A DNA stretch of 64,000 nt from an uncultured Bacteroidota bacterium (GTDB taxonomy: Bacteria; Bacteroidota; Bacteroidia; Bacteroidales; SZUA-534), in the NCBI GenBank assembly GCA_946186925.1, contig CAMHPA010000001.1, positions 17,327-81,326 of the forward strand, read 5' to 3'. A program made the position numbers and the translations under genes. The notes under the pieces were generated by a model that was given only the letters and a program-made list of their open reading frames with translations, was not told the origin of the DNA and searched no databases. Below, piece after piece: positions 8,145 to 30,285 of this stretch. The first letter of the stretch is position 1; the number at the start of each line of letters is the position of its first letter.

Positions 8145-9446
8145 ATGGTTGACGAATCGCGTATATTACAAGTTCTTGCTGAACAAAAAGAGGAGAATGC
8201 CTCCCTCAAGCCACGGCATTGGGTTAAGCGTATGGAAGAATCTTTGTTTGAGTTCGATAGTCCGTTAGCGCAGGTTGTGATAGGTGTACGCCGCAGCGGA
8301 AAATCAACCTTATGCCATAAAGTGTTGAAAGAGCGCAGTGTGCGTTATGGATATGCCAACCTTGACGATGACCGTTTGGCCGATATGCGAGTCGAAGATT
8401 TAAACACGCTTCTCTCGTGCCTTTACCAACTTTATGGCACCGATGTGTCATATTTGTTTTTCGATGAAATACAAAACGTTGATGGATGGCATTTGTTTGT
8501 CAACCGTCTGTTACGCAACGGATTACATATTTTTGTAACAGGTAGCAACGCCAAATTGCTCAGCAGTGAACTTGCCACTTATCTCACAGGCCGCTACAAC
8601 GAAATCCACCTTTATCCGTTTTCATTTCCAGAATATTGTGCGTTCCATAATATTGACACTAAGGGTATTACAACAAAAGCCGATGCGGAATGCAAACGGG
8701 CGTTTGTTGATTATTTAAATACCGGTGGATTTCCCGAAATGCAGTCAATGCACAACAAACGCGGATATGTTCAGAGCCTTTTAGGTGCCATTTTGCAAAA
8801 AGACATACGGCAACGTTTTGGAATCTATCATATTGATGCTCTCGAAAAAATAGCATACAATCTGATTAGCAACGCCTGTCAAGTGGTGAATTACAATGAT
8901 TTGGCAACAACACTTGGATTGTCGGACAAGACGGTTAAAAAGTATGTTGGCTACCTACAGCAAGCATTTCTGGTGCAATTACTTCCGCGGCATTCATTCA
9001 AGAGTAAAGAAAGGTTGGTAGGTGAGAAGGCTTATCTTGTTGATAACGGACTGGAAAACAACCGCTATTTTTCGATGGCAGGCGAAAACACTGGATGGAG
9101 ATTGGAAAATGCTGTTTACATCGAATTGCTTCGCCGTTGTTCGAAAGCGTATTTCGATGTGTACTACTATCGACCCGATTCTAGGTCCAAAGAGGTTGAT
9201 TTTGTGGTATGTAACCAAAACCGCGCAGTAGAATTGGTACAAGTTGCTTTCGAAATCGACAAACCGAAAACTTTTGCGCGTGAGACGTCGTCGTTAGTTA
9301 AAGCATCGGCTTTGTTAAGGTGTGATAAGCTGACTCTTGTTGCATTTTCACCATCGAGAACCGAAGTTGTTGATGGCAAGGAGATTAAAATAGTTTCGGT
9401 AACAGATTGGTTTTTAAAGTCAGAAGACATATACGGAGAGTTGTGA
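8145..9446 (+). CDS. AAA-type ATP-binding protein with DUF4143-like C-terminal domain (COG1373-like)
   Basis: 433 aa with Walker A (GVRRSGKST), Walker B (LFFDEIQNVDGW) and the conserved GSNAKLLSSELATYLTGRY...LYPFSFPEY. The C-terminal segment is KEVDFVVCNQNRAVELVQVAFEI. The gene is lower in GC than its neighbours. Confidence 0.8.
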   Translation: MVDESRILQVLAEQKEENASLKPRHWVKRMEESLFEFDSPLAQVVIGVRRSGKSTLCHKVLKERSVRYGYANLDDDRLADMRVEDLNTLLSCLYQLYGTDVSYLFFDEIQNVDGWHLFVNRLLRNGLHIFVTGSNAKLLSSELATYLTGRYNEIHLYPFSFPEYCAFHNIDTKGITTKADAECKRAFVDYLNTGGFPEMQSMHNKRGYVQSLLGAILQKDIRQRFGIYHIDALEKIAYNLISNACQVVNYNDLATTLGLSDKTVKKYVGYLQQAFLVQLLPRHSFKSKERLVGEKAYLVDNGLENNRYFSMAGENTGWRLENAVYIELLRRCSKAYFDVYYYRPDSRSKEVDFVVCNQNRAVELVQVAFEIDKPKTFARETSSLVKASALLRCDKLTLVAFSPSRTEVVDGKEIKIVSVTDWFLKSEDIYGEL

Positions 9447-20446: not shown

Positions 20447-20454
20447 TATATTTG
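20447..20454 (+). promoter_or_regulatory. candidate -7 promoter box for the giant gene
   Basis: tatatttg lies 70 nt upstream of ATG 20524. That is further than for the other boxes in this window. Confidence 0.3.
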
Positions 20455-20523: not shown

Positions 20524-23500
20524 ATGAAAACCATAGCAAAAAAAGTATTCGCGGTTTTGGCATTAGCCATCACAACGGTCGCATCAGTTTTCGGACAAAA
20601 CGGATTCTCCTATCAGGCAGTCATCCGTAACGCCGAGGGCGAGTTAGTTGCCAACAAGCAAATTGTGGCAAAGTTCACACTCAAGCACGATGGCGAAAGC
20701 TATTACACCGAAACACAATCGGTAGCGACAAACCAGTATGGCAACATCCAGGTTGTTGTGGGCGCGGGCGAGAAAGTTGACGGCGAGTTCGCCAATGTTC
20801 CATGGAACACAATGGCAATCAAGATGCTGGTTGAGGTTGACCTCGACGGCGCAGGAAAATACACGGCTCTGGGCGAAGTTCCGATTCAGGCCGCGCCATA
20901 CGCCATGCACGCGCAAAAAGCAGGCGGAGTGGCAACCCAAAACGCTAACACAAAAGACGGCGATGCTCTTTTTGCAGTGAACGACGCCAGCGGCAACCCC
21001 GTGTTTGCCGTGTTTGCCGAAGGCATTGTGGTTTATGTTGACGATGCCGCCGACAAGGCAGCCCGCCGCAGCGGATTCGTCGTTACCGGCCGATCGGCAA
21101 CCAAAGACCAGGCCGCAGCCGAATATTTTGCTGTAACAACCGAAGGAACACACATCTACGTTGACGACGCTGACGACAAGGCAGCCCGCCGCAGCGGATT
21201 CGTTGTCACTGGCCGCTCGGCGACCAAAGACGGCGAGCAGGCCGACTATCTGACCGTCGGAGGCGAGGGCACAACCGTTTATGTTGACGGTGCTGACGAC
21301 AAGGCAGCCCGCCGCAGCGGATTCGTTGTCACTGGCCGCTCGGCGACCAAAGACGGCGAGCAGGCCGACTATCTGACCGTCGGAGGCGAGGGCACAACCG
21401 TTTATGTTGACGGTGCTGACGACAAGGCAGCCCGCCGCAGCGGATTCGTTGTCACCGGCCGCTCGGCAACCAAAGACAGCGCAGAGCAGCAATACTTTGC
21501 CGCCACAGCCGACGGCACAACCGTATATGTCGACGATGCCGCCGACAAGGCAGCCCGCCGCAGCGGATTTGTTGTCACCGGCCGCTCGGCAACCAAAGAC
21601 GGCGAGCAGGCCGACTATCTGGCCGTTGGCGGCGAGGGCACGCAAGTGTTCATCGACGGAGCTGACGAAGAGAGCGACAAGGCAGCCCGCCGCAGCGGAT
21701 TCGTTGTTACCGGCCGCTCGGCAACCAAAGCCGACGAAACGATGTTCGCCATTGAGGGCGGATTCACCCGAGTGTACATCGACGAAGAGGTGGACGACAA
21801 GGCAGCCCGCCGCAGCGGATTTGTTGTTACTGGCCGCTCGGCAACCAAAGCGCCGACCAAGTACATGGCGATTGACAGAGACAGCACCAACATACAGACA
21901 ACGGAATTAACCATAAATGAGAAACCCGACATTCAGCAAGTTCAGCCGAGCGACACGCAGAAGCGCAAGAACACCTTCTCCATCAAAGGAGGAAACGTGC
22001 AGGTTGGCGGCGACGTGGTAATGACCGGCGATGTGGAGAAAAAAGTTGATGTCATTCCGACTGACACCGGCATTGAGCTTCCGAAACTCGACAAGATTGT
22101 CGACCGCGTCGATACTGTCGACTGCTCAATCTACAAGCCCTTCATCTACGGCGACGACAGCGACAGTGAGGGCTATGCCATTCTGGGTGTCTACTCGGAA
22201 GGATCGTACTCCGTTGTCGACAACACCGACGCATCAGGCAACACGGTGCTGCTTATCGACGAGAACGGATTCGTAACCAAGAAACAGAAGAACGCCACCG
22301 TGGTTGTACTCATGCCTGAAGGTGGCAAACAATTGTACATCAGGCCGATTGCAGCCACAAACCAGACTATCAGCTTCGGTCTGATTAAGAGAAAAGCCAC
22401 CGAGCCATACCAATATATAATGGTTGAGGTTGAAGTTGAGGCTAAAGCCGGCATACCTTACGAAGTGAAGACAGCCAGTGTTGAAGGCGGCCGCGTAATC
22501 ATCAGTAGTGCAACCGCGCTCTACGGCGAGAAAGTACAGATTGAAGCTGTGCCTAACGACGGCTATACCTTCGCGGGCTGGAGCGATGGCGCAACATTCC
22601 TCTTAAAGCGCACCATGACTGTGACAAGCGACATCTTTATCACTGCCTCTTTTGAGATGGACAGTTACAGTGTCGAGACTTCGGTCAACGATGAGGGTAT
22701 GGGTTATGTTGACGTTGAAGGCAGCCACAACTATGGCGACAAGGTGACCTTTACAGCCAATCCGAATGAGGGATACAGTTTTAAAAACTGGTCGGGTGAG
22801 AGCATTGAGAACATTGAAGGCATTGATTTAACCGCAAATCCGCTTGAGGTGGTGCTGAAGTCAGATTTGAATGTGACAGCCAATTTTGAGATCATCACCT
22901 TTACCGTGACTTTCGACCCGCAGGGCGGAAAAGTCAATCCGGCCACTGTATCAGTGGATTACAAAGGAACAATTGCCGAGCCCAAAGCCGAACGCAAAGG
23001 ATACCATATTGTTTATTGGGCCACAAATGTCGATGGAAAACTAGTGAAGTTCAACTTCAACGATCCGATTGTGAGCGACACTACAATAATTGCCCAATGG
23101 GAGGTACAGCCGTACACAATAAGTTATAAGGAAGTTGATGACAATTTTGCCAGCGCCACAAGCTACACGGTTGAGGAGTTGCCTACAATTGCGGAGCCAT
23201 CAAAAGAAGGTAACGAATTCATAGGCTGGACCGGCAAAAATTGGCCAGAGCCAACCAAGGAAATAAGTTTTGACGATCTGGCAGAGGACATTGAGCTTAC
23301 AGCCAACTGGGCGCCCAACCAGCACAGCGTTACATTCATCAATGGCAACGAAACAGTTGCTGAATCGACCGTTGAATATGGCGCACAAATTGAGCAGCCT
23401 GAGAACAATCCGGAGAAAGAAGGCCATGAGTTTGTAGGGTGGAACACCGACAGCAATGCCACTGAGGCCGCAGCCATTGGTCAGATGCCAGATGACGATG

Positions 23501-26500
23501 TTGTCTATTACGCCATCTGGAGCGTGAAAAGCTATGAGCTCACATGGGTTTACGAAGGCACCATTAACGAGACCATAGCGTACACCATGGCCGGCAGCGT
23601 AGAGTATGGCACGCAACTGATAGCGCCGAAAATCAACCGCGCAGGTTACGAGTTGGAAGGCTGGGAGCCCGAGGTGACCACCATGCCGGCAGAAAATATG
23701 ACTTACACCGCAAAGTGGAAGCCCAACACCAACACTGCATACACGGTGAATATCTATAAACAGGATGTTTATGGAAAAGATTATGAACTGGTCGACCAAA
23801 AATCAAAAACCGGTACCACCGATACTGACGCCACCTTCGACGCACAAGAAATTGAAGGCTTTGAAGTACAGCCGATTACTTCTGTAAAAATCAGCGGCGA
23901 TGGCTTGGCAGAGCTTAGAGTTAAATACAACCGTTTGCCATACCAAGCCTTATGGATGGCAAATGGCCAGAAGTTTGCTGAGACCGAGGCCTTATACGAA
24001 GCCGAAATACCAGCATTGGCCGAACAACCGACGCTCACGGGCCACAGTTTCGACGGCTGGTATTATGAGGTGAACGGCGACGAAGCAATGTTTGAAGAGG
24101 GAAAACTCACAATGCCCCTCGGCGGCATAACCTTCACCGCAGGATTCAGTAAAAAATACTATGCCGTTAATTTGCCGGATGCGGGATTGATTATTGAAAG
24201 CCCGCAGGACGTTGACGGAAAATATGAGTATGAAGCTGAAGTCACACTCAAGGTGACCGACGACTATGAGCTGACAGGCGACATTACCGCAACCGACGCC
24301 AGCGGCAACAGCATCGTTATTAATGACAACAATGGCAGCTACACATTCACCATGCCTGACGACGTTGTCACAATAACAGCAGAACTCACCAAGATATACG
24401 CCGTGACCTTTGATGCCAACGGTGGCAAGTTTGCCGATGGTGAGGGAACCATGACAATAAAAGTGGCGGAGAACACCGCAATCAGTGATGTTCCTGTGGC
24501 AACCCGTGACGGATACTCTGTAAAATGCTGGCTGAAAATAGCTGGTGAGACAAACGAAGAATTCGATTTTTCCACTCCGATTGCAAGCGCAATCACGCTT
24601 AAGGCCGACTGGACTCCCGATGTGTACACCAAGGGCAGTCTGCAATTGAAGGATAACGCTGGAAGAGTAGCTGATGCAATGTACGCATATTATAAGTGTG
24701 CCGCCGGCGAGTATCTCTATCTGTGCCACCAATATCATATTGGAAACGAAGATCAATTGACATCAGAATACCGCAACTACTATGTAGTTAATGGCAAAAT
24801 ATATGAAGACGATGTTTATGCTTCAAAAACGTTGCAGTTAGGGTATGGTGTGATGCCAGTGCCGATAGGGAACGTTGTTACTGGATACGAAGAGACTATT
24901 GAAAATGGCGAGCACAGCATGCAGAACCTGCTTGGTGAATACGCCGCAAATATTCCAACCGACCTGGATGCATTTAACGCCTTGCCATTTAGCAGTTTGG
25001 TGAAGAAATACTCTTATTTCCCAACAGGTGGAAGCTTATCGGAAATAACCAAATCAACAGACAATAGCTACACTCTGACAGGAACCAGTATAAAACCGGA
25101 AGAAATTGTAAGCGCAGAAAAAAATGGCAATAACGACACATGCAATTACGAATCTTCGATATTCTCGGAAAAGAGTTACTACAATCGCCTGACACTTGCC
25201 GAAATTGCCAGCAAGTTTGATTTAATCAGAAATGGATGTGACATTGTAACCGATTACGAAGGGGGCACCGTTGCTGTCAGCGGCAACAAAACGCACGTGA
25301 ACTATCGTGAGGAGGTAACTCTTACGGCAACAGCCAAAGAATCATACATCTTCTATTGCTGGGCCGACTATAGCCTGGATAACCCGCGCACAGTGAAAGT
25401 TACCGAAGCGGCACTGGTTCAGGCCATCTTCATTGAGCCGGCAATATATGTGTCGAAGAATGGCAACAATATGAATAGCGGTATCACCAGAAATGAGTCT
25501 GTGCCTACAATTGCCGATGCATTGCACCGCATACCGCCACAATCAGACCCTGACAATTGGGCCGATTGGGAGATACGCATTATTGGCACACTTAAAGGAG
25601 GTCAGAGCATTGCAGATGATATGAATATTGAAGGTATCAGATCTCCCATTCCCGCTAAATCAATCACTCTTACGGGCGCCAGTGAATTGAAGGACGGCCA
25701 GCCGCAGGATACAATTGACGCAGGTTGGGAATATTACAATACAGGAGAGTTTGACGGTGATAATGAGCCAATTTACGCTTGGAGAAACGTGTATAATTAT
25801 GCAGGAGAAGTGCCGGCACTTACCATCACAGCCCCCGTGCCGGTTACCATCAAGAATCTGATAATCACTCGAGGTAAAAGTATGACGGGTGGAGGAATCA
25901 AAATAACATACGAAGACTACGATGTTATCCCTGACGATGCTGGCGTTACGCTTGCCGAAAATGCAATCATAACAAACAATGCAGCAACAAATGACGGTTG
26001 CGCTGGTGTATATATTAATTCAGGAACACTTCGTATGCTCGATGGCAGCAAGATTTCCGGAAACCAAGCCATTTATGGTGGTTCGGGTGGCGGCGTGGTG
26101 TTAGAAAACGGAACGCTTGATATGCAAGGCGGCATAATCAGTGGTAACAATACTACCAGTTTCGGCGACGATATCTATTTCAGCGATGGAACGCTATTGT
26201 TGAGTGGCGCTCCGGTTATTGGTAAGTTATACTATTCTGATGGATACATTGTGTTGGCCGAAAATCTGACCGATGGTGCCTCCATAACCATTCAGCCAAA
26301 TTATTATGAAGAGCCGTATATGTGGTATGATGAGTTATATTACACCACCTTGCTCACGGCCGAGAGTGGAGTATCGGTTGCCGATAACATCGACGGACAT
26401 TTCGACTTAATACAACCAACTGGCGACAGTCGTACATGGTTTATTGCCTGCAACGATGAAAACGAGGGAATTCTCACGTACAATTGCACAGTTACAGCCA

Positions 26501-29500
26501 ATGGCACAGAATACCCTGTGCCGCGTGGTACAAAAATGGAACCTCTTGCTGAGCCTACCAAGCCCGACAATGTAGACGCGGAAAGCGAGTTCACAGGTTG
26601 GCTTAACGGAGATATCTTTTTCGATTTCGAAAACGATTATGTGCTTGAAGATATGACGCTTACACCTGTTTGGGCTAAGCCGAAGACCGAGCTATACGTT
26701 AATCCGGAATACACAAACTCCGACTCCGACGGAACAAGTGAAAAACCGTTTGCCAGCATTCAGGATGCCATACACGATATTTATCTTTACAACAAAGCCG
26801 ATTACGACTACACTATCTATGTAAATGGATACGAGCAAAACCAAGTTGTGATTGGAAATTCATTATCGGCCAAAACAATTTTATTGCTGGGTGTTGGTGA
26901 TAATAGCGGTTTTGACATTCCTTCGTATGGGTATATGCCGCTTTCAATAGAGACGAATGTACCTGTTACGCTCAAGAACGTTAAAATTAATGTTAGGACT
27001 TTTGTAAATAGCTGTGTTTCAAAAGCATTGGCAGTCGCAATAGGTTATGATGCCGATGTGACTTTTGCCGAAGGAACTGAAATCAACGGAAACGGTATAA
27101 ACCAAACATCTGATAATGCCGGTGTGGTTGTCAACGGAAAACTCACAATGAGCGATGATGCCAAAATTCATGGATTCACGGCAGGGGTTGCAGGTGGTGT
27201 CTTGCTTGAAAACTCTAATAGCGTGCTGATTATGGAAGGCAACTCATCGATTTATGAATGCTCCTCAAAAAATAGTAACGGTGGTGGTGGAATTCACATG
27301 AGTTCGGGACAAGTGACAATGAACGATAATGCAATAATCCGCAACTGCACTGCCAACTATTATTGTGGCGGTGTTACTATCGAAGGTGGTGAGTTTGTAA
27401 TGAACAACGAATCGGCGATCACCGCTTGCCGAGGCGGCTCTAACGGATCGGCCGGTGTGTACATCAAAAACGCCACAGTCACCATGAATGGAGGAGAAAT
27501 AAGCAACAATACAGTGTCTGAGAGATATGGTGCCGGGGTGTATATGGGCGAGGGTTCAAAATTCATAATGAAAGGCGGAACAATATCTGATAACAAAGGT
27601 GGTGGTGTATATATTACTGGCAGTTCTTATACCAGTTACGGTGAATTCGATATGCAAGGCGGCACAATTAGCGGCAACTTGAGTGCGGATGGTTCTGCAC
27701 CATGGTTTGGTGTGCATGTGTGCGCGGATGTAGTATATGACAATAATGATAATAAAATTCATTCAGGGGTAGGTGTTTTAAAAATGAGTGGCTCGGCCTA
27801 TGTTGATGAGGACAATGAGGTTATTTTGTGTTATGACGATGAGGAAAGAAATAATACAATTGTTTATGAGCAAGCTCAAATCACCATTACTGGTCAGCTG
27901 ACTCATGATGGGCCGGCGGCCAGAATAAAATTGTTAGATCGATTATCATCTGTTCCAAGGTATTCTAGGGGGAAGAAACTGATAGATGGCGACGATTATG
28001 TTTCGGAGTATTACAGCAAATTCATACTTGACAGCGATGAATGGACAATAGGCAGCGATGGTACTTTAAAACGCATATCAGAGGGCACCATCAGCAGCAA
28101 GTTCACGGTTAACGCGGAGGGCAAGCAAGTGTACTTCTCGCAAGGCAACCTGCAGTATAACATGGGCAGCCATACGTGGCAGTTTGCCGAGGATCAGTGC
28201 GCTTACATTGGTACGGATAATGAAAACATAAGTAATGCCGATTACAAAGATTGGATCGACCTCTTCAGCTGGGGCAAAGGCAACAATCCAACAGAGTACC
28301 TGTCAGATGCCGATTACAGCGAATTTGTCGACTTTGGCAGCAATGCCATCAGCAACGGCGGTAATGCACAAAACAAATGGCGTACGCTTACAAAAGATGA
28401 ATGGGATTATCTGCTGACACGTAGCAGTATGGTAACTGTTGGGGATCAAAAGGTTTTGGTTCTGACACCCGATGGATTCGAAGTACCCGGCAGCCACACT
28501 TTATTGAAAAATAAATGGAGCGACCCAGAGCATGGGTCATACCATCAATTATCTCAATATGAAATGTCGCAGTTGGAGTCGTTTGGAGCAGTATTCCTTC
28601 CGGTAGCAGGATATCGCAGCGGAGACGATGAAAACGTTTATGTATACAACGTTACTACTCATGGAACCTATATGTCGGCAACACCTGACAATGACGTGAA
28701 CGCATGGTATTTTGACTTCAGTTCAGACGGCGGCATATTAACAGCCAAAGGCGCACGAAGCTTAGGCTACTCAGTCCGCCTTGTGCAGGATGTTGAGGGT
28801 TCGGGCAGCAGTTCCGGCAGCGGTGGCAGCACAACATTCCACGTTGCTCCAGGCAGTAATGGCAACGGCACAGAATCTGCTCCGTTTGGCTCAATAACCG
28901 ACGCATTGGCTGCCATGACCGATGAAACAGCCAGCTACACAGTTATTGTTGACGGTGATTTCTCAGAAGACGGTGAATGGCGTATTGAAGGTGAAAATTA
29001 CGAATCAATCAAAGCCAGCAACATCTTGATTAAAGGCAAGAACGGTAACAATGCCGACAAGCTGCCGGGCGTTTATGTGAAAACCGAAGCCGAGGTGACA
29101 TTCGAAACAATTCATATTGGCGCAATGTTTATTGGCGCTGTGCAGATAGACGAGGACGATTATGCTCCGGCAAACGTGATTTTTGAAAACGGAGCGGTTG
29201 TCGAAAACAACACTTCAATAAAGTATATTGATGAAACAGGTTTGAATGGAACCGTTGAACTTTTCCAAAAGGGCGCTGTGACGCTCACCATCCGCCAGGG
29301 AGCTGAAATAGTGAACAACGACATCAACGGTGAATATGAAAACAATTCTTGTGGCGGCGTGTATATTGGCCAGTATTCAAAATTAGTGATGGAGGGCGGC
29401 ACCATCAGCGGTAACACCAAATACGATGTCTGCAACAGCGCCGATGGCAGCGTGACTTTGAGCGGAGAGGCCAAGGCCGGCAAGGTTTATATTCACGGAG

Positions 29501-30285
29501 ACAATGATACGAATGTTCCAATCATAATTGGAGGCGAGCTTACCGGAACAGGAACGGTGGCAACCATTTGTCCGGCGAAATATTCTGAGGGTGACCAGGT
29601 AATTGTTTTGGCAACCGACGACGATAACAACAACATTAGCGGTACCTCATTGCCCGATGTGTACAGCCGCTTCGAGGTTGCCGAACAGTTCAATGCAGCC
29701 AATCCGGGCAAACCAACCCAATGGTATGTCGATTCTGAGGGAAAACTCACCAAGACTGATCCAAACAGCACCAGCCAAACCGTTCCCTCGTGGATGACAG
29801 ACGATGGCAACGGGCACTATTATGTTGATTTAGGTCTGTCTACCCTTTGGGCAACCACCAATGTGGGAGCAGATAACCCTCAAGACAAAGGCACTGCCAT
29901 CCAATGGAGCGAGAACATTGGTGGCAGCTGGGGTACTGACTGGAAGGCACCTACGCAGCAGCAGTTTGCAGAGCTTGATGAATGCACCATGGAATATGTC
30001 GACAGTTATGCTGGCACAGGCAAAAAGGGAATTGTTGTGTATGGGGAAAACAACAGCAGCCAGTCACTCGACAGCCCACATATTTTTATTCCATACGATG
30101 CTGATATAAATGGCAACTATTGGACATCGGAGGCTGGGGACGAAAGTGGTACGGCGAAAGTCGTTATTTTCACTTATAGTGAAGGTGGTCATGGAGGTAC
30201 TGTATCTGTGGTCGGAGCCAGTGATACACAATCCATCGAACAGGCTTATGAAAATGAGCATGTAGTGCGTCTGGTTAGAAAGTAA
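20524..30285 (+). CDS. giant secreted multidomain surface-type protein (3,253 aa)
   Basis: An uninterrupted 9.76-kb ORF. Module order: Sec signal peptide MKTIAKKVFAVLALAITTVASVFGQ; a ~110-aa N-terminal domain; 7 x 41-aa basic repeats; at least 10 Listeria-Bacteroides/InlB-B-type repeats (GYTFAGW, GYSFKNW, GYHIVYW, GNEFIGW, GHEFVGW, GYELEGW, GHSFDGW, GYSVKCW, EFTGW). Three beta-helix-like regions follow, opening with YVSKNG..SVPTIADAL, YVNPEY..EKPFASIQDAI and HVAPGS..SAPFGSITDAL. There are also two FISUMP/DUF1566-like lectin-fold modules (VYFSQGNLQY...SVRLVQD; LWATTNVGA...YWTSE...VRLVRK). Confidence 0.9.
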   Translation: MKTIAKKVFAVLALAITTVASVFGQNGFSYQAVIRNAEGELVANKQIVAKFTLKHDGESYYTETQSVATNQYGNIQVVVGAGEKVDGEFANVPWNTMAIKMLVEVDLDGAGKYTALGEVPIQAAPYAMHAQKAGGVATQNANTKDGDALFAVNDASGNPVFAVFAEGIVVYVDDAADKAARRSGFVVTGRSATKDQAAAEYFAVTTEGTHIYVDDADDKAARRSGFVVTGRSATKDGEQADYLTVGGEGTTVYVDGADDKAARRSGFVVTGRSATKDGEQADYLTVGGEGTTVYVDGADDKAARRSGFVVTGRSATKDSAEQQYFAATADGTTVYVDDAADKAARRSGFVVTGRSATKDGEQADYLAVGGEGTQVFIDGADEESDKAARRSGFVVTGRSATKADETMFAIEGGFTRVYIDEEVDDKAARRSGFVVTGRSATKAPTKYMAIDRDSTNIQTTELTINEKPDIQQVQPSDTQKRKNTFSIKGGNVQVGGDVVMTGDVEKKVDVIPTDTGIELPKLDKIVDRVDTVDCSIYKPFIYGDDSDSEGYAILGVYSEGSYSVVDNTDASGNTVLLIDENGFVTKKQKNATVVVLMPEGGKQLYIRPIAATNQTISFGLIKRKATEPYQYIMVEVEVEAKAGIPYEVKTASVEGGRVIISSATALYGEKVQIEAVPNDGYTFAGWSDGATFLLKRTMTVTSDIFITASFEMDSYSVETSVNDEGMGYVDVEGSHNYGDKVTFTANPNEGYSFKNWSGESIENIEGIDLTANPLEVVLKSDLNVTANFEIITFTVTFDPQGGKVNPATVSVDYKGTIAEPKAERKGYHIVYWATNVDGKLVKFNFNDPIVSDTTIIAQWEVQPYTISYKEVDDNFASATSYTVEELPTIAEPSKEGNEFIGWTGKNWPEPTKEISFDDLAEDIELTANWAPNQHSVTFINGNETVAESTVEYGAQIEQPENNPEKEGHEFVGWNTDSNATEAAAIGQMPDDDVVYYAIWSVKSYELTWVYEGTINETIAYTMAGSVEYGTQLIAPKINRAGYELEGWEPEVTTMPAENMTYTAKWKPNTNTAYTVNIYKQDVYGKDYELVDQKSKTGTTDTDATFDAQEIEGFEVQPITSVKISGDGLAELRVKYNRLPYQALWMANGQKFAETEALYEAEIPALAEQPTLTGHSFDGWYYEVNGDEAMFEEGKLTMPLGGITFTAGFSKKYYAVNLPDAGLIIESPQDVDGKYEYEAEVTLKVTDDYELTGDITATDASGNSIVINDNNGSYTFTMPDDVVTITAELTKIYAVTFDANGGKFADGEGTMTIKVAENTAISDVPVATRDGYSVKCWLKIAGETNEEFDFSTPIASAITLKADWTPDVYTKGSLQLKDNAGRVADAMYAYYKCAAGEYLYLCHQYHIGNEDQLTSEYRNYYVVNGKIYEDDVYASKTLQLGYGVMPVPIGNVVTGYEETIENGEHSMQNLLGEYAANIPTDLDAFNALPFSSLVKKYSYFPTGGSLSEITKSTDNSYTLTGTSIKPEEIVSAEKNGNNDTCNYESSIFSEKSYYNRLTLAEIASKFDLIRNGCDIVTDYEGGTVAVSGNKTHVNYREEVTLTATAKESYIFYCWADYSLDNPRTVKVTEAALVQAIFIEPAIYVSKNGNNMNSGITRNESVPTIADALHRIPPQSDPDNWADWEIRIIGTLKGGQSIADDMNIEGIRSPIPAKSITLTGASELKDGQPQDTIDAGWEYYNTGEFDGDNEPIYAWRNVYNYAGEVPALTITAPVPVTIKNLIITRGKSMTGGGIKITYEDYDVIPDDAGVTLAENAIITNNAATNDGCAGVYINSGTLRMLDGSKISGNQAIYGGSGGGVVLENGTLDMQGGIISGNNTTSFGDDIYFSDGTLLLSGAPVIGKLYYSDGYIVLAENLTDGASITIQPNYYEEPYMWYDELYYTTLLTAESGVSVADNIDGHFDLIQPTGDSRTWFIACNDENEGILTYNCTVTANGTEYPVPRGTKMEPLAEPTKPDNVDAESEFTGWLNGDIFFDFENDYVLEDMTLTPVWAKPKTELYVNPEYTNSDSDGTSEKPFASIQDAIHDIYLYNKADYDYTIYVNGYEQNQVVIGNSLSAKTILLLGVGDNSGFDIPSYGYMPLSIETNVPVTLKNVKINVRTFVNSCVSKALAVAIGYDADVTFAEGTEINGNGINQTSDNAGVVVNGKLTMSDDAKIHGFTAGVAGGVLLENSNSVLIMEGNSSIYECSSKNSNGGGGIHMSSGQVTMNDNAIIRNCTANYYCGGVTIEGGEFVMNNESAITACRGGSNGSAGVYIKNATVTMNGGEISNNTVSERYGAGVYMGEGSKFIMKGGTISDNKGGGVYITGSSYTSYGEFDMQGGTISGNLSADGSAPWFGVHVCADVVYDNNDNKIHSGVGVLKMSGSAYVDEDNEVILCYDDEERNNTIVYEQAQITITGQLTHDGPAARIKLLDRLSSVPRYSRGKKLIDGDDYVSEYYSKFILDSDEWTIGSDGTLKRISEGTISSKFTVNAEGKQVYFSQGNLQYNMGSHTWQFAEDQCAYIGTDNENISNADYKDWIDLFSWGKGNNPTEYLSDADYSEFVDFGSNAISNGGNAQNKWRTLTKDEWDYLLTRSSMVTVGDQKVLVLTPDGFEVPGSHTLLKNKWSDPEHGSYHQLSQYEMSQLESFGAVFLPVAGYRSGDDENVYVYNVTTHGTYMSATPDNDVNAWYFDFSSDGGILTAKGARSLGYSVRLVQDVEGSGSSSGSGGSTTFHVAPGSNGNGTESAPFGSITDALAAMTDETASYTVIVDGDFSEDGEWRIEGENYESIKASNILIKGKNGNNADKLPGVYVKTEAEVTFETIHIGAMFIGAVQIDEDDYAPANVIFENGAVVENNTSIKYIDETGLNGTVELFQKGAVTLTIRQGAEIVNNDINGEYENNSCGGVYIGQYSKLVMEGGTISGNTKYDVCNSADGSVTLSGEAKAGKVYIHGDNDTNVPIIIGGELTGTGTVATICPAKYSEGDQVIVLATDDDNNNISGTSLPDVYSRFEVAEQFNAANPGKPTQWYVDSEGKLTKTDPNSTSQTVPSWMTDDGNGHYYVDLGLSTLWATTNVGADNPQDKGTAIQWSENIGGSWGTDWKAPTQQQFAELDECTMEYVDSYAGTGKKGIVVYGENNSSQSLDSPHIFIPYDADINGNYWTSEAGDESGTAKVVIFTYSEGGHGGTVSVVGASDTQSIEQAYENEHVVRLVRK
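21052..21850 (+). repeat. in-frame tandem repeat, 7 copies, period 123 bp (one 132, one 120)
   Basis: The core gacaaggcagcccgccgcagcggattcgt.gt.ac.ggccg.tcggc.accaaag (D-KAARRSGFVVTGRSATK) starts at 21052, 21175, 21298, 21421, 21544, 21676 and 21796. Units 21175-21297 and 21298-21420 are identical at all 123 positions. Confidence 0.95.

Follow-up and report, generated by a model that had tools for sequence, protein, structure and literature searches.

Locus and repeat-bearing gene

The DNA analyzed here (the window) is a stretch of 64,000 nucleotides from contig CAMHPA010000001.1 (positions 17,327 to 81,326, forward strand) of the assembly GCA_946186925.1, which belongs to an uncultured Bacteroidota bacterium of the order Bacteroidales. 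It contains a 9.8-kb open reading frame (ORF) at 20524..30285 on the plus strand, the only long ORF in this region, which encodes a predicted secreted giant surface protein of 3253 amino acids (aa). Close to its N-terminus, the protein carries seven tandem units of about 41 aa, which belong to a large repeat family and probably form the stalk of a surface fibre. The features of the gene discussed below are the following.

20524..20595, plus strand: signal peptide, aa 1-24, MKTIAKKVFAVLALAITTVASVFG, followed by Q25 (read from the sequence)
20602..20898, plus strand: conserved N-terminal beta-sandwich, aa 27-125, a putative cell-proximal anchor (AlphaFold2, predicted local distance difference test score, pLDDT, 90-96)
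20983..21849, plus strand: array of seven units of about 41 aa, aa 154-442, each consisting of an acidic beta-hairpin [YF][FL]xVxxxGTxVYVDDxxD and then the basic core KAARRSGFVVTGRSATK
21055..21105, plus strand: core 1 (51 nt), the first of seven; the further six lie at 21178-21228, 21301-21351, 21424-21474, 21547-21597, 21679-21729 and 21799-21849
21169..21455, plus strand: perfect stretch of period 123, 287 bp, equal to two identical units plus 41 bp
21850..21903, plus strand: degenerate terminal half unit closing the array, APTKYMAIDRDSTNIQTT (read from the sequence)

The signal peptide was modeled by AlphaFold2 as a helix (aa 2-24), and its cleavage site is probably located before Q25. No lipobox cysteine follows the signal peptide, and searches of Pfam and NCBIfam did not find a C-terminal sorting domain of the type IX secretion system in the protein. 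The octamer TATATTTG at window positions 20447-20454, approximately 70 nt upstream of the ATG, fits the -7 promoter consensus of Bacteroidetes, TAnnTTTG, and is a putative promoter.

The core is present exactly seven times, at aa 178, 219, 260, 301, 342, 386 and 426, and none of the frames of the window contains a further copy. The units have lengths of 123, 123, 123, 123, 132 and 120 nt and are followed by a final 54-nt core, all in frame; the Tandem Repeats Finder program places the array at 21031-21876 with a period of 123 and a score of 819. Thus, seven in-frame copies, these unit lengths and an invariant 17-aa core, which had been proposed in a sequence-only reading made by a model, were all confirmed by direct inspection. 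The same reading counted four R/K residues in the core, where five basic residues (K, R, R, R, K) are in fact present, and the conserved block is really 18 aa long, with a D before each core K. As that reading also proposed, units 21175-21297 and 21298-21420 are identical at the nucleotide level; the periodic stretch, however, extends beyond this pair to the limits listed above and apparently marks a recent duplication of one unit. The seven cores vary at six nucleotides, each of them a third codon position. The more natural phase of the repeat seems to be that of the acidic beta-hairpin plus the core, which gives seven complete units (aa 154-442) and then the degenerate half unit APTKYMAIDRDSTNIQ; relatives show equivalent array endings of the YLSVTGESIDFS type. 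Two further ORFs overlap the array, one of 333 aa at 20644..21645 on the minus strand and one of 168 aa at 21404..21910 in another frame of the plus strand. Both are by-products of the repeat, and such artefact ORFs could mislead gene callers.

The genes adjacent to the repeat-bearing gene were scanned over roughly 3 kb on the upstream side and 2.7 kb on the downstream side. RNase R is encoded upstream and a cytidylyltransferase-like protein downstream, and genes of a thioredoxin-like protein and Ham1 are also present. These are housekeeping genes, and therefore the locus is not a prophage. The array superficially resembles a non-coding DNA repeat similar to clustered regularly interspaced short palindromic repeats (CRISPR), in which invariant cores (51-54-bp repeats) alternate with variable segments that differ little in length (69-78-bp spacers); on this reading, the ORF would be incidental. 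However, all unit lengths are multiples of three and lie within a 9.8-kb ORF with hundreds of protein homologues, the core differences are all synonymous, the "spacers" are mutually homologous and kept as positional orthologues in other genes, and the scanned flanks contain no cas genes. This explanation was excluded by the coding evidence, and the probability left to it is practically nil.

According to the Pfam analysis, the 3253-aa protein contains five Flg_new matches, three Flg_new_2 matches and a Beta_helix match, all of them downstream of the array, the best Flg_new and Flg_new_2 matches being located at aa 718-1000. NCBIfam indicated List_Bact_rpt and a weak N-terminal similarity with NF053851 Bdello_MAT_N. 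The C-terminal part of approximately 2,800 aa consists of Flg_new repeats and a beta-helix. On the array itself (aa 154-442), Pfam gave no match of any kind, and the unit does not match the Listeria-Bacteroides repeat or the InlB B-repeat (PF09479, PF18998, TIGR02543).

Identification and distribution of the repeat family

No family covering the unit was found in scans of the whole protein and of its N-terminal 499 aa against Pfam, NCBIfam and PHROGs; the PHROGs matches were sums of sub-threshold repeat matches, and no single stretch passed alone. A search of PDB sequences with the 499-aa fragment gave 0 matches, a PDB profile search returned only a resemblance to the hairpin of YVTN repeats, and no literature on the repeat motif was found. 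Since Foldseek did not point to a family either, the earlier statement that the core is not a recognized named domain holds for all of these searches.

An exact-protein look-up of the window protein found nothing on record, and a word-indexed search with the 41-aa profile gave one irrelevant match of 70 aa, the query being too short for the index. A single-protein scan of genome contigs found no close relative, but an alignment-based rescan did detect 570 relatives. The search with aa 1-471 retrieved 76 proteins, mostly from metagenome-assembled genomes (MAGs) of Salinivirgaceae, in which the same N-terminal domain (N-domain) is followed by 2-9 similar units. A unit profile (A1) of 41 positions, built from 59 units, matches all seven units of the window protein (7/7) and detected 1,495 clusters (50% identity) at E ≤ 1e-3, 756 of them at E ≤ 1e-10, with many proteins of 2-4.4 kaa. 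The homologues have the N-terminal ~470-1060 aa in common with the window protein. In 215 relatives, 2-9 units with a period of 37-44 aa (mode 40) were found, the first of them at median aa 154, directly after the N-domain; the array of the window protein starts at exactly this median position.

A set of 79 loci, 77 obtained in the genome scan of the 570 relatives and two in a metagenome scan, was analyzed. The repeat is present in 77 of them, with 1-17 units per ORF and, at some loci, up to 8 tandem paralogs; rumen Salinivirgaceae have many paralogs per genome. In the source annotations, the relatives are named "hypothetical", "tail fiber domain-containing" or "InlB B-repeat-containing". Neither a pattern scan of IMG/VR nor tblastn against GenBank phages detected the repeat, and a phage origin was rejected on these grounds.

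The repeat constitutes a large family that has neither a name nor an entry in the protein-family and structure libraries searched. We propose it as a new family, the Bacteroidota fibre stalk repeat (acidic hairpin plus basic strand, ~40 aa). The pattern that defines it, [FL]xVxxxGTxV[YF]VD...KAxxxGFxVxGRxAxK in tandem directly after an N-terminal beta-sandwich with FxYQAV[IV]R, is present in the window protein.

Several variants were observed among the relatives. In the giant proteins of loci L010, L013, L004, L053 and L061, arrays of 9-17 units are internal, more than 500-1200 aa from the N-terminus, the longest being that of the L010 ORF at 6176 (17 units, array from aa 1281); therefore, the repeat is not confined to the position right after the N-domain. 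A KAAKSRFAVAGRSA-type subfamily (P0021, P0030 and P0036) has hairpins alternating between GTxVYVDD and GSTFYV forms, and this alternation suggests a two-unit super-repeat of ~78 aa. The only locus labelled as non-Bacteroidota, L057 (JBKHIH010000043.1, a MAG labelled Thiohalospira sp.), encodes the N-domain and 5 units; its label could reflect mis-binning or horizontal transfer. Tandem clusters of 5-8 fibre paralogs on the same strand were found in MAGs of other Bacteroidales/Rikenellaceae (L058 1-21011, L065 1-17432, L067, L069 and L063), each paralog having 2-4 units, with cores identical across the paralogs.

N-terminal domain and architecture of the relatives

In relatives, the same N-domain and repeats are joined to Collagen (PF01391), YadA_head (PF05658) and Peptidase_S74 (PF13884) modules, and the array is placed between collagen triple-helix segments on one side and YadA-head-like repeats with the Peptidase_S74 intramolecular chaperone on the other. 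The short relative P0060, for example, combines the N-domain and 2 units with a YadA-like head and S74. The collagen triple helix, the YadA head and the S74 chaperone are obligate trimer modules. About 10 of 54 relatives match trimeric-autotransporter head models of NCBIfam. In three relatives, collagen GXY tracts and globular modules of ~90 aa with a YRGxW...EPR motif are located between the N-domain and the array (P0077 aa 124-330, P0082 aa 135-650 and P0064 aa 140-260).

The N-domain of the window protein shows similarity with positions 4-78 of the 162-position profile NF053851 Bdello_MAT_N at 31.1-31.5 bits, below its cut-off of 60. Of the 54 relatives, 48 match this NCBIfam model, with a best E value of 7.5e-13. 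A Foldseek search with the modeled N-domain found no PDB match at E ≤ 1e-3. The profile matches suggest that the N-domain is remotely homologous to that of the mosaic adhesive trimer (MAT) proteins, without being a member of the MAT family, and it may serve as the outer-membrane anchor of the protein.

MAT fibres of Bdellovibrio are trimers exposed on the cell surface, in which the N-domain is invariant and the tips can be exchanged (Caulton et al. 2024, PMC10769870), and the tip regions that were solved are described as a trimeric beta-helix (PMC10769870). Our comparison with them covers the N-domain and the overall architecture. In both groups of proteins, an invariant N-terminal domain is combined with a fibre shaft and with exchangeable C-terminal parts of great variability, and there are many paralogs per genome; one subgroup of the repeat proteins ends in Peptidase_S74 while others do not. 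The joining of a conserved N-part to diverse exchangeable C-termini is seen both in the unrelated C-termini of the relatives and in the contig L078 described below. The differences are that the repeat hosts are Bacteroidota (rumen and gut Salinivirgaceae and other Bacteroidales) and not a predator, and that the window protein carries the Flg_new and beta-helix part of ~2,800 aa and no compact tip.

Trimeric tail fibres of the phage type, or endosialidase-like fibres, with a C-terminal intramolecular chaperone (PF13884), were also compared. Many of the repeat proteins likewise end in Peptidase_S74, often preceded by collagen or YadA-head-like repeats; in contrast, the window protein has no S74 module, the repeat was found neither in GenBank phages nor in IMG/VR contigs, and the neighbouring genes are housekeeping ones.

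Anatomy of the unit and structure prediction

The positions conserved in the whole family are F/L8, V/I10, G14, T15, V/I17, Y/F18, V/I19, D20, K26, A27, G31, F32, V34, G36, R37, A39 and K41. They follow the i/i+2 pattern of beta-strands, with a tight DGT turn and strands bounded by glycines. The 17 residues of the core are invariant only within a lineage; across the family, conservation is limited to the positions K, A, G, F, V, G, R, A and K. The distribution of charge is also kept family-wide: the core has a charge of about +4.3, plus the leading K, and the hairpin/loop part about -4.8, and 98% of the cores in 866 units have a charge of at least +3. It is plausible that the acidic hairpin is packed against the basic strand, with internal or inter-chain salt bridges.

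The sequence-only reading had suggested predicting the structure of several units. Using a cleaner alignment for the array alone, AlphaFold2 gave three strands per unit, namely the two hairpin strands and RSGFVVT, but at low confidence. The model of aa 1-560 is confident in the N-domain only. The low confidence obtained for a monomer is compatible with an obligate oligomer, of which it is not proof.

These models bear on whether the stalk might be a single-chain (monomeric) rod resembling a beta-solenoid, with the same spacer or stalk function, and not an intertwined trimer. The best array model, with three strands per unit and a predicted template modelling score (pTM) of 0.48, is in line with such a rod, and the structures in the non-significant tail of the Foldseek results are single-chain beta-helices (tailspikes, pectate lyases, SufD and FapC); in addition, the C-terminal Flg_new and Beta_helix domains of the window protein occur in monomeric proteins. 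However, the confidence of that model is low (pLDDT 50, with 36-42 for the other four models). The position of the array in relatives, between a collagen triple helix and the S74 trimerisation chaperone, means that three parallel chains are needed there, and arrays of 1-3 units exist, which are too short for a stable single-chain solenoid. A monomeric rod is considered fairly unlikely, but it is still a serious alternative to the trimer.

The seven units might also be imagined as the blades of a seven-bladed beta-propeller of the YVTN type. The unit profile matches the YVTN propeller of a Methanosarcina surface-layer protein (PDB 1l0q) with a summed E value of 1.8e-6, via aVxpDGTkVYV, and the period of about 41 aa and the copy number of seven would fit; the two repeats have a ~40-residue period and the hairpin motif xVxxDGTxVYV in common. 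In each blade, however, only 11 residues of the hairpin are matched, and none of the stretches reaches significance by itself. The propeller and YVTN models of NCBIfam and Pfam do not match the protein. AlphaFold2, which is normally confident on propellers, yields none, and Foldseek returns no propellers. Moreover, the copy number is open-ended in relatives (1-17 units), with close relatives differing by single units, which is incompatible with a closed propeller. The propeller explanation is accordingly very improbable, and the resemblance appears confined to the hairpin.

Conservation of the core sequences

Two processes underlie the invariance of the cores. In locus L065, the fifteen 16-aa cores of five paralogs are 100% identical as protein, and their codon identity is 0.47 versus 0.43 expected from codon usage; loci L064, L058 and L053 are similar, with identical cores and near-random synonymous sites. 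The synonymous sites of L065 are thus random though its cores are identical, which indicates purifying selection on the protein sequence of the core. Core invariance, judging by these codon comparisons, is partly the result of strong purifying selection, which accords with the proposal of the sequence-only reading that the core is more than a mere spacer.

In the window gene, the codon identity of the cores is 0.835 versus 0.325 expected from the codon usage of the gene itself, and 11 of the 17 codons are identical in all seven cores, a number that never exceeded 3 in simulation. The DNA of the flanking hairpins is only 33-68% identical between units. The window gene has thus also undergone recent homogenisation or duplication at the DNA level. 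A comparison with the locus L079 is instructive in this respect: its hairpins are positional orthologues of those in the window protein (79-83% aa identity on the diagonal), and at one core position all six L079 cores have Lys (AAA/AAG) versus Arg (CGC) in all seven window cores. Such a uniform switch between K and R amid orthologous hairpins points to concerted change.

Among 215 proteins, core identity is 0.86 within and 0.53 between proteins, and that of the hairpin part 0.41 within and 0.34 between proteins. Most paralogs of one genome have the same core, and cores differ between lineages. Two earlier explanations did not withstand these data. Gene conversion as the sole cause of core invariance was revised, since the near-random synonymous sites of L065, L064 and L058 require selection too. 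A core "barcode" specific to each paralog, ensuring the specificity of homotrimers, was rejected because the paralogs of one genome mostly have the same core.

The strictness of conservation raises the question of whether each basic core is a functional site present seven times and not primarily a structural element. It could bind a ligand (e.g., an anionic polysaccharide or lipopolysaccharide), be processed by a protease at RR/SG, or be cross-linked (e.g., by a Lys-Asp isopeptide bond). The cores are exactly identical despite randomised synonymous sites (L065), also between paralogs within a genome; this is more than is usual for structural repeats and would be compatible with a shared partner. 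The positive charge is kept family-wide (at least +3 in 98% of cores), and K26, K41 and D20 are conserved. On the other hand, searches of Pfam, NCBIfam and PDB did not reveal similarity with any family of binding, protease or isopeptide domains. The dibasic RR is replaced by KR, ST, KS, VG or AK in other lineages, and therefore an RR/SG site cannot be the function of the family. The conserved residues show the i/i+2 pattern of a beta-strand, with glycines at the strand ends, and an equally conserved negative charge in the same unit suggests internal salt bridges. The context is that of a fibre stalk, with collagen, YadA-head and S74-chaperone modules in relatives, and part of the invariance in the window gene is due to homogenisation of the DNA. 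On balance, a functional site of this kind is unlikely.

Copy number and mosaicism

A second sequence closely similar to the window was found in the metagenomic contig L078. It is identical to window positions 20710-21700 at 861 of 868 positions (99.2%), save for a clean gap of 123 bp, which corresponds to one of the two identical units; as a result, L078 has 6 units and the window protein 7. Downstream, the similarity decreases in the following region.

21701..21849, plus strand: zone of divergence from L078, a probable recombination junction in core 6 / unit 7 (identity 133/149, 89%; then 20/47 over 21850-21900)

The proteins encoded by the window and by L078 are similar up to about aa 796. 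Near-identical 5' halves with 6 and 7 units thus appear to be joined to different C-terminal parts, with the junction probably located in the last cores. The copy number also varies among the close relatives P0047, P0056 and P0060, which have 4, 3 and 2 units, respectively, and P0077 has duplicated pairs of units. The recent duplication and varying copy number anticipated in the sequence-only reading are therefore borne out, both by the loss of one 123-bp unit in L078 relative to the window and by the 4, 3 and 2 units of these relatives.

The identical pair of units and the difference between 7 and 6 might alternatively be an assembly artefact, by expansion in the window or collapse in L078. 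The perfectly periodic stretch of 287 bp is longer than common assembly k-mers, and both sequences come from metagenome or MAG-type assemblies. Nevertheless, the collapse of identical repeats is a far more frequent assembly error than their expansion, and seven is therefore more likely a minimum; independent relatives behave alike (P0047, P0056 and P0060 with their different unit numbers, P0077 with its duplicated pairs), and the copy number ranges from 1 to 17 family-wide. An artefact is thus quite unlikely as the explanation of both observations.

Proposed function of the array

The data demonstrate the repeat family with its architecture, the variation in copy number, the selection on the cores and their homogenisation, whereas the trimeric state, the geometry of stacking, the position at the surface and the role as a stalk are inferred. 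Taken together, these data make it probable that the array serves as the stalk in a fibre or adhesin on the cell surface, in which the units are stacked along the axis, most likely in a parallel homotrimer, and the number of units sets the length of the stalk. The protein would then have three sections: a signal peptide with the N-terminal beta-sandwich resembling that of MAT fibres, presumably located at the cell surface; the seven stalk units of ~41 aa; and a very long C-terminal "cargo", variable between lineages, that is composed of InlB-type B-repeats and beta-helix regions. Each unit would contribute an acidic beta-hairpin (YxxV-xxxGT-xVYVDD) and then a basic beta-strand (K-A-x-R-S-G-F-x-V-x-G-R), and the stacked units would be held together by buried F/V/I residues and acid-base pairing. 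Selection keeps the cores uniform, as would be expected for equivalent strands stacked in register. The gene has also experienced recent unit duplication or gene conversion through the identical cores of 51 nt, which permit the gain or loss of units in frame (7 here, 6 in the 99%-identical allele), and the cores appear to serve as junctions joining different C-terminal parts.

Tandem-repeat stalks in modular fibrous adhesins are already known in kind. Those of trimeric autotransporters and other length-variable adhesins (YadA/UspA1, Alp/Rib and M-protein) likewise consist of in-frame tandem repeats between an anchor and a functional distal part, differ in copy number between close strains and show intragenic homogenisation. 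Unlike them, the repeat proteins described here lack both an autotransporter beta-barrel anchor and a coiled-coil stalk; their unit is rich in beta-strands, shows an acid/base dipole and is not similar in sequence to those repeats.

Several observations weigh against this reading. The AlphaFold2 monomer models have low confidence on the array, with a pLDDT of 35-50 in the model of aa 1-560 and a pLDDT of 50 and pTM of 0.48 for the array alone, and neither model has a significant match in a Foldseek search of the PDB. The similarity of the N-domain with that of MAT proteins is below the NCBI cut-off (31 versus 60 bits). Collagen, YadA-head and S74 modules were not found in the window protein by Pfam and NCBIfam, and its C-terminal part has Flg_new repeats, a type of repeat characteristic of monomeric domains; therefore, the argument for trimerisation here comes from the relatives only. 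The difference between 6 and 7 units could be a short-read collapse in L078 and not biology. Finally, most structural repeats could do with less than exact identity of the cores across all units and paralogs in a genome, so that the cores might have a specific partner or play a chemical role.

A more far-reaching possibility, put forward tentatively and with appreciable doubt, is that the cores are a lineage-specific "uniform zipper" that selection keeps identical across all units and paralogous fibre genes of a genome, even where the synonymous sites are saturated. The cores would then have a partner in common or recognize each other; candidates are a dedicated assembly or anchoring factor, mixed trimers of paralogs, or ladder-like stacking in register, in which all rungs have to change together. 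The cores would at the same time be recombination hubs at the DNA level, which change the length of the stalk and swap C-terminal adhesin modules of several kilobases.

Apart from the repeat, a gene encoding an AAA_14/DUF4143 ATPase is located at window positions 8145-9443, amid the housekeeping genes of KARI, a class I tRNA synthetase, FtsX and RNase R; it is unrelated to the repeat.

Significance for Bacteroidota surface proteins

Fibrous surface proteins govern what gut and rumen Bacteroidota attach to, including plant fibre, host tissue and other microbes. The family, which comprises at least 1,495 clusters, most likely provides the stalk of mosaic surface fibres in Bacteroidota; the N-domain of these fibres links them, as a distant relation, to the MAT fibres of Bdellovibrio. 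Its evolutionary pattern is unusual in combining selected uniform cores, hairpins that are positional orthologues, length polymorphism by single units and a junction of C-terminal exchange located in a core. If the cores do act as a zipper and as recombination hubs, rumen Salinivirgaceae would have a programmable system of surface diversity. The family offers a target for structure determination and for the annotation of thousands of giant "hypothetical" proteins, as well as a testable model of how rumen and gut Bacteroidota may vary the length of their stalks and their adhesin tips.

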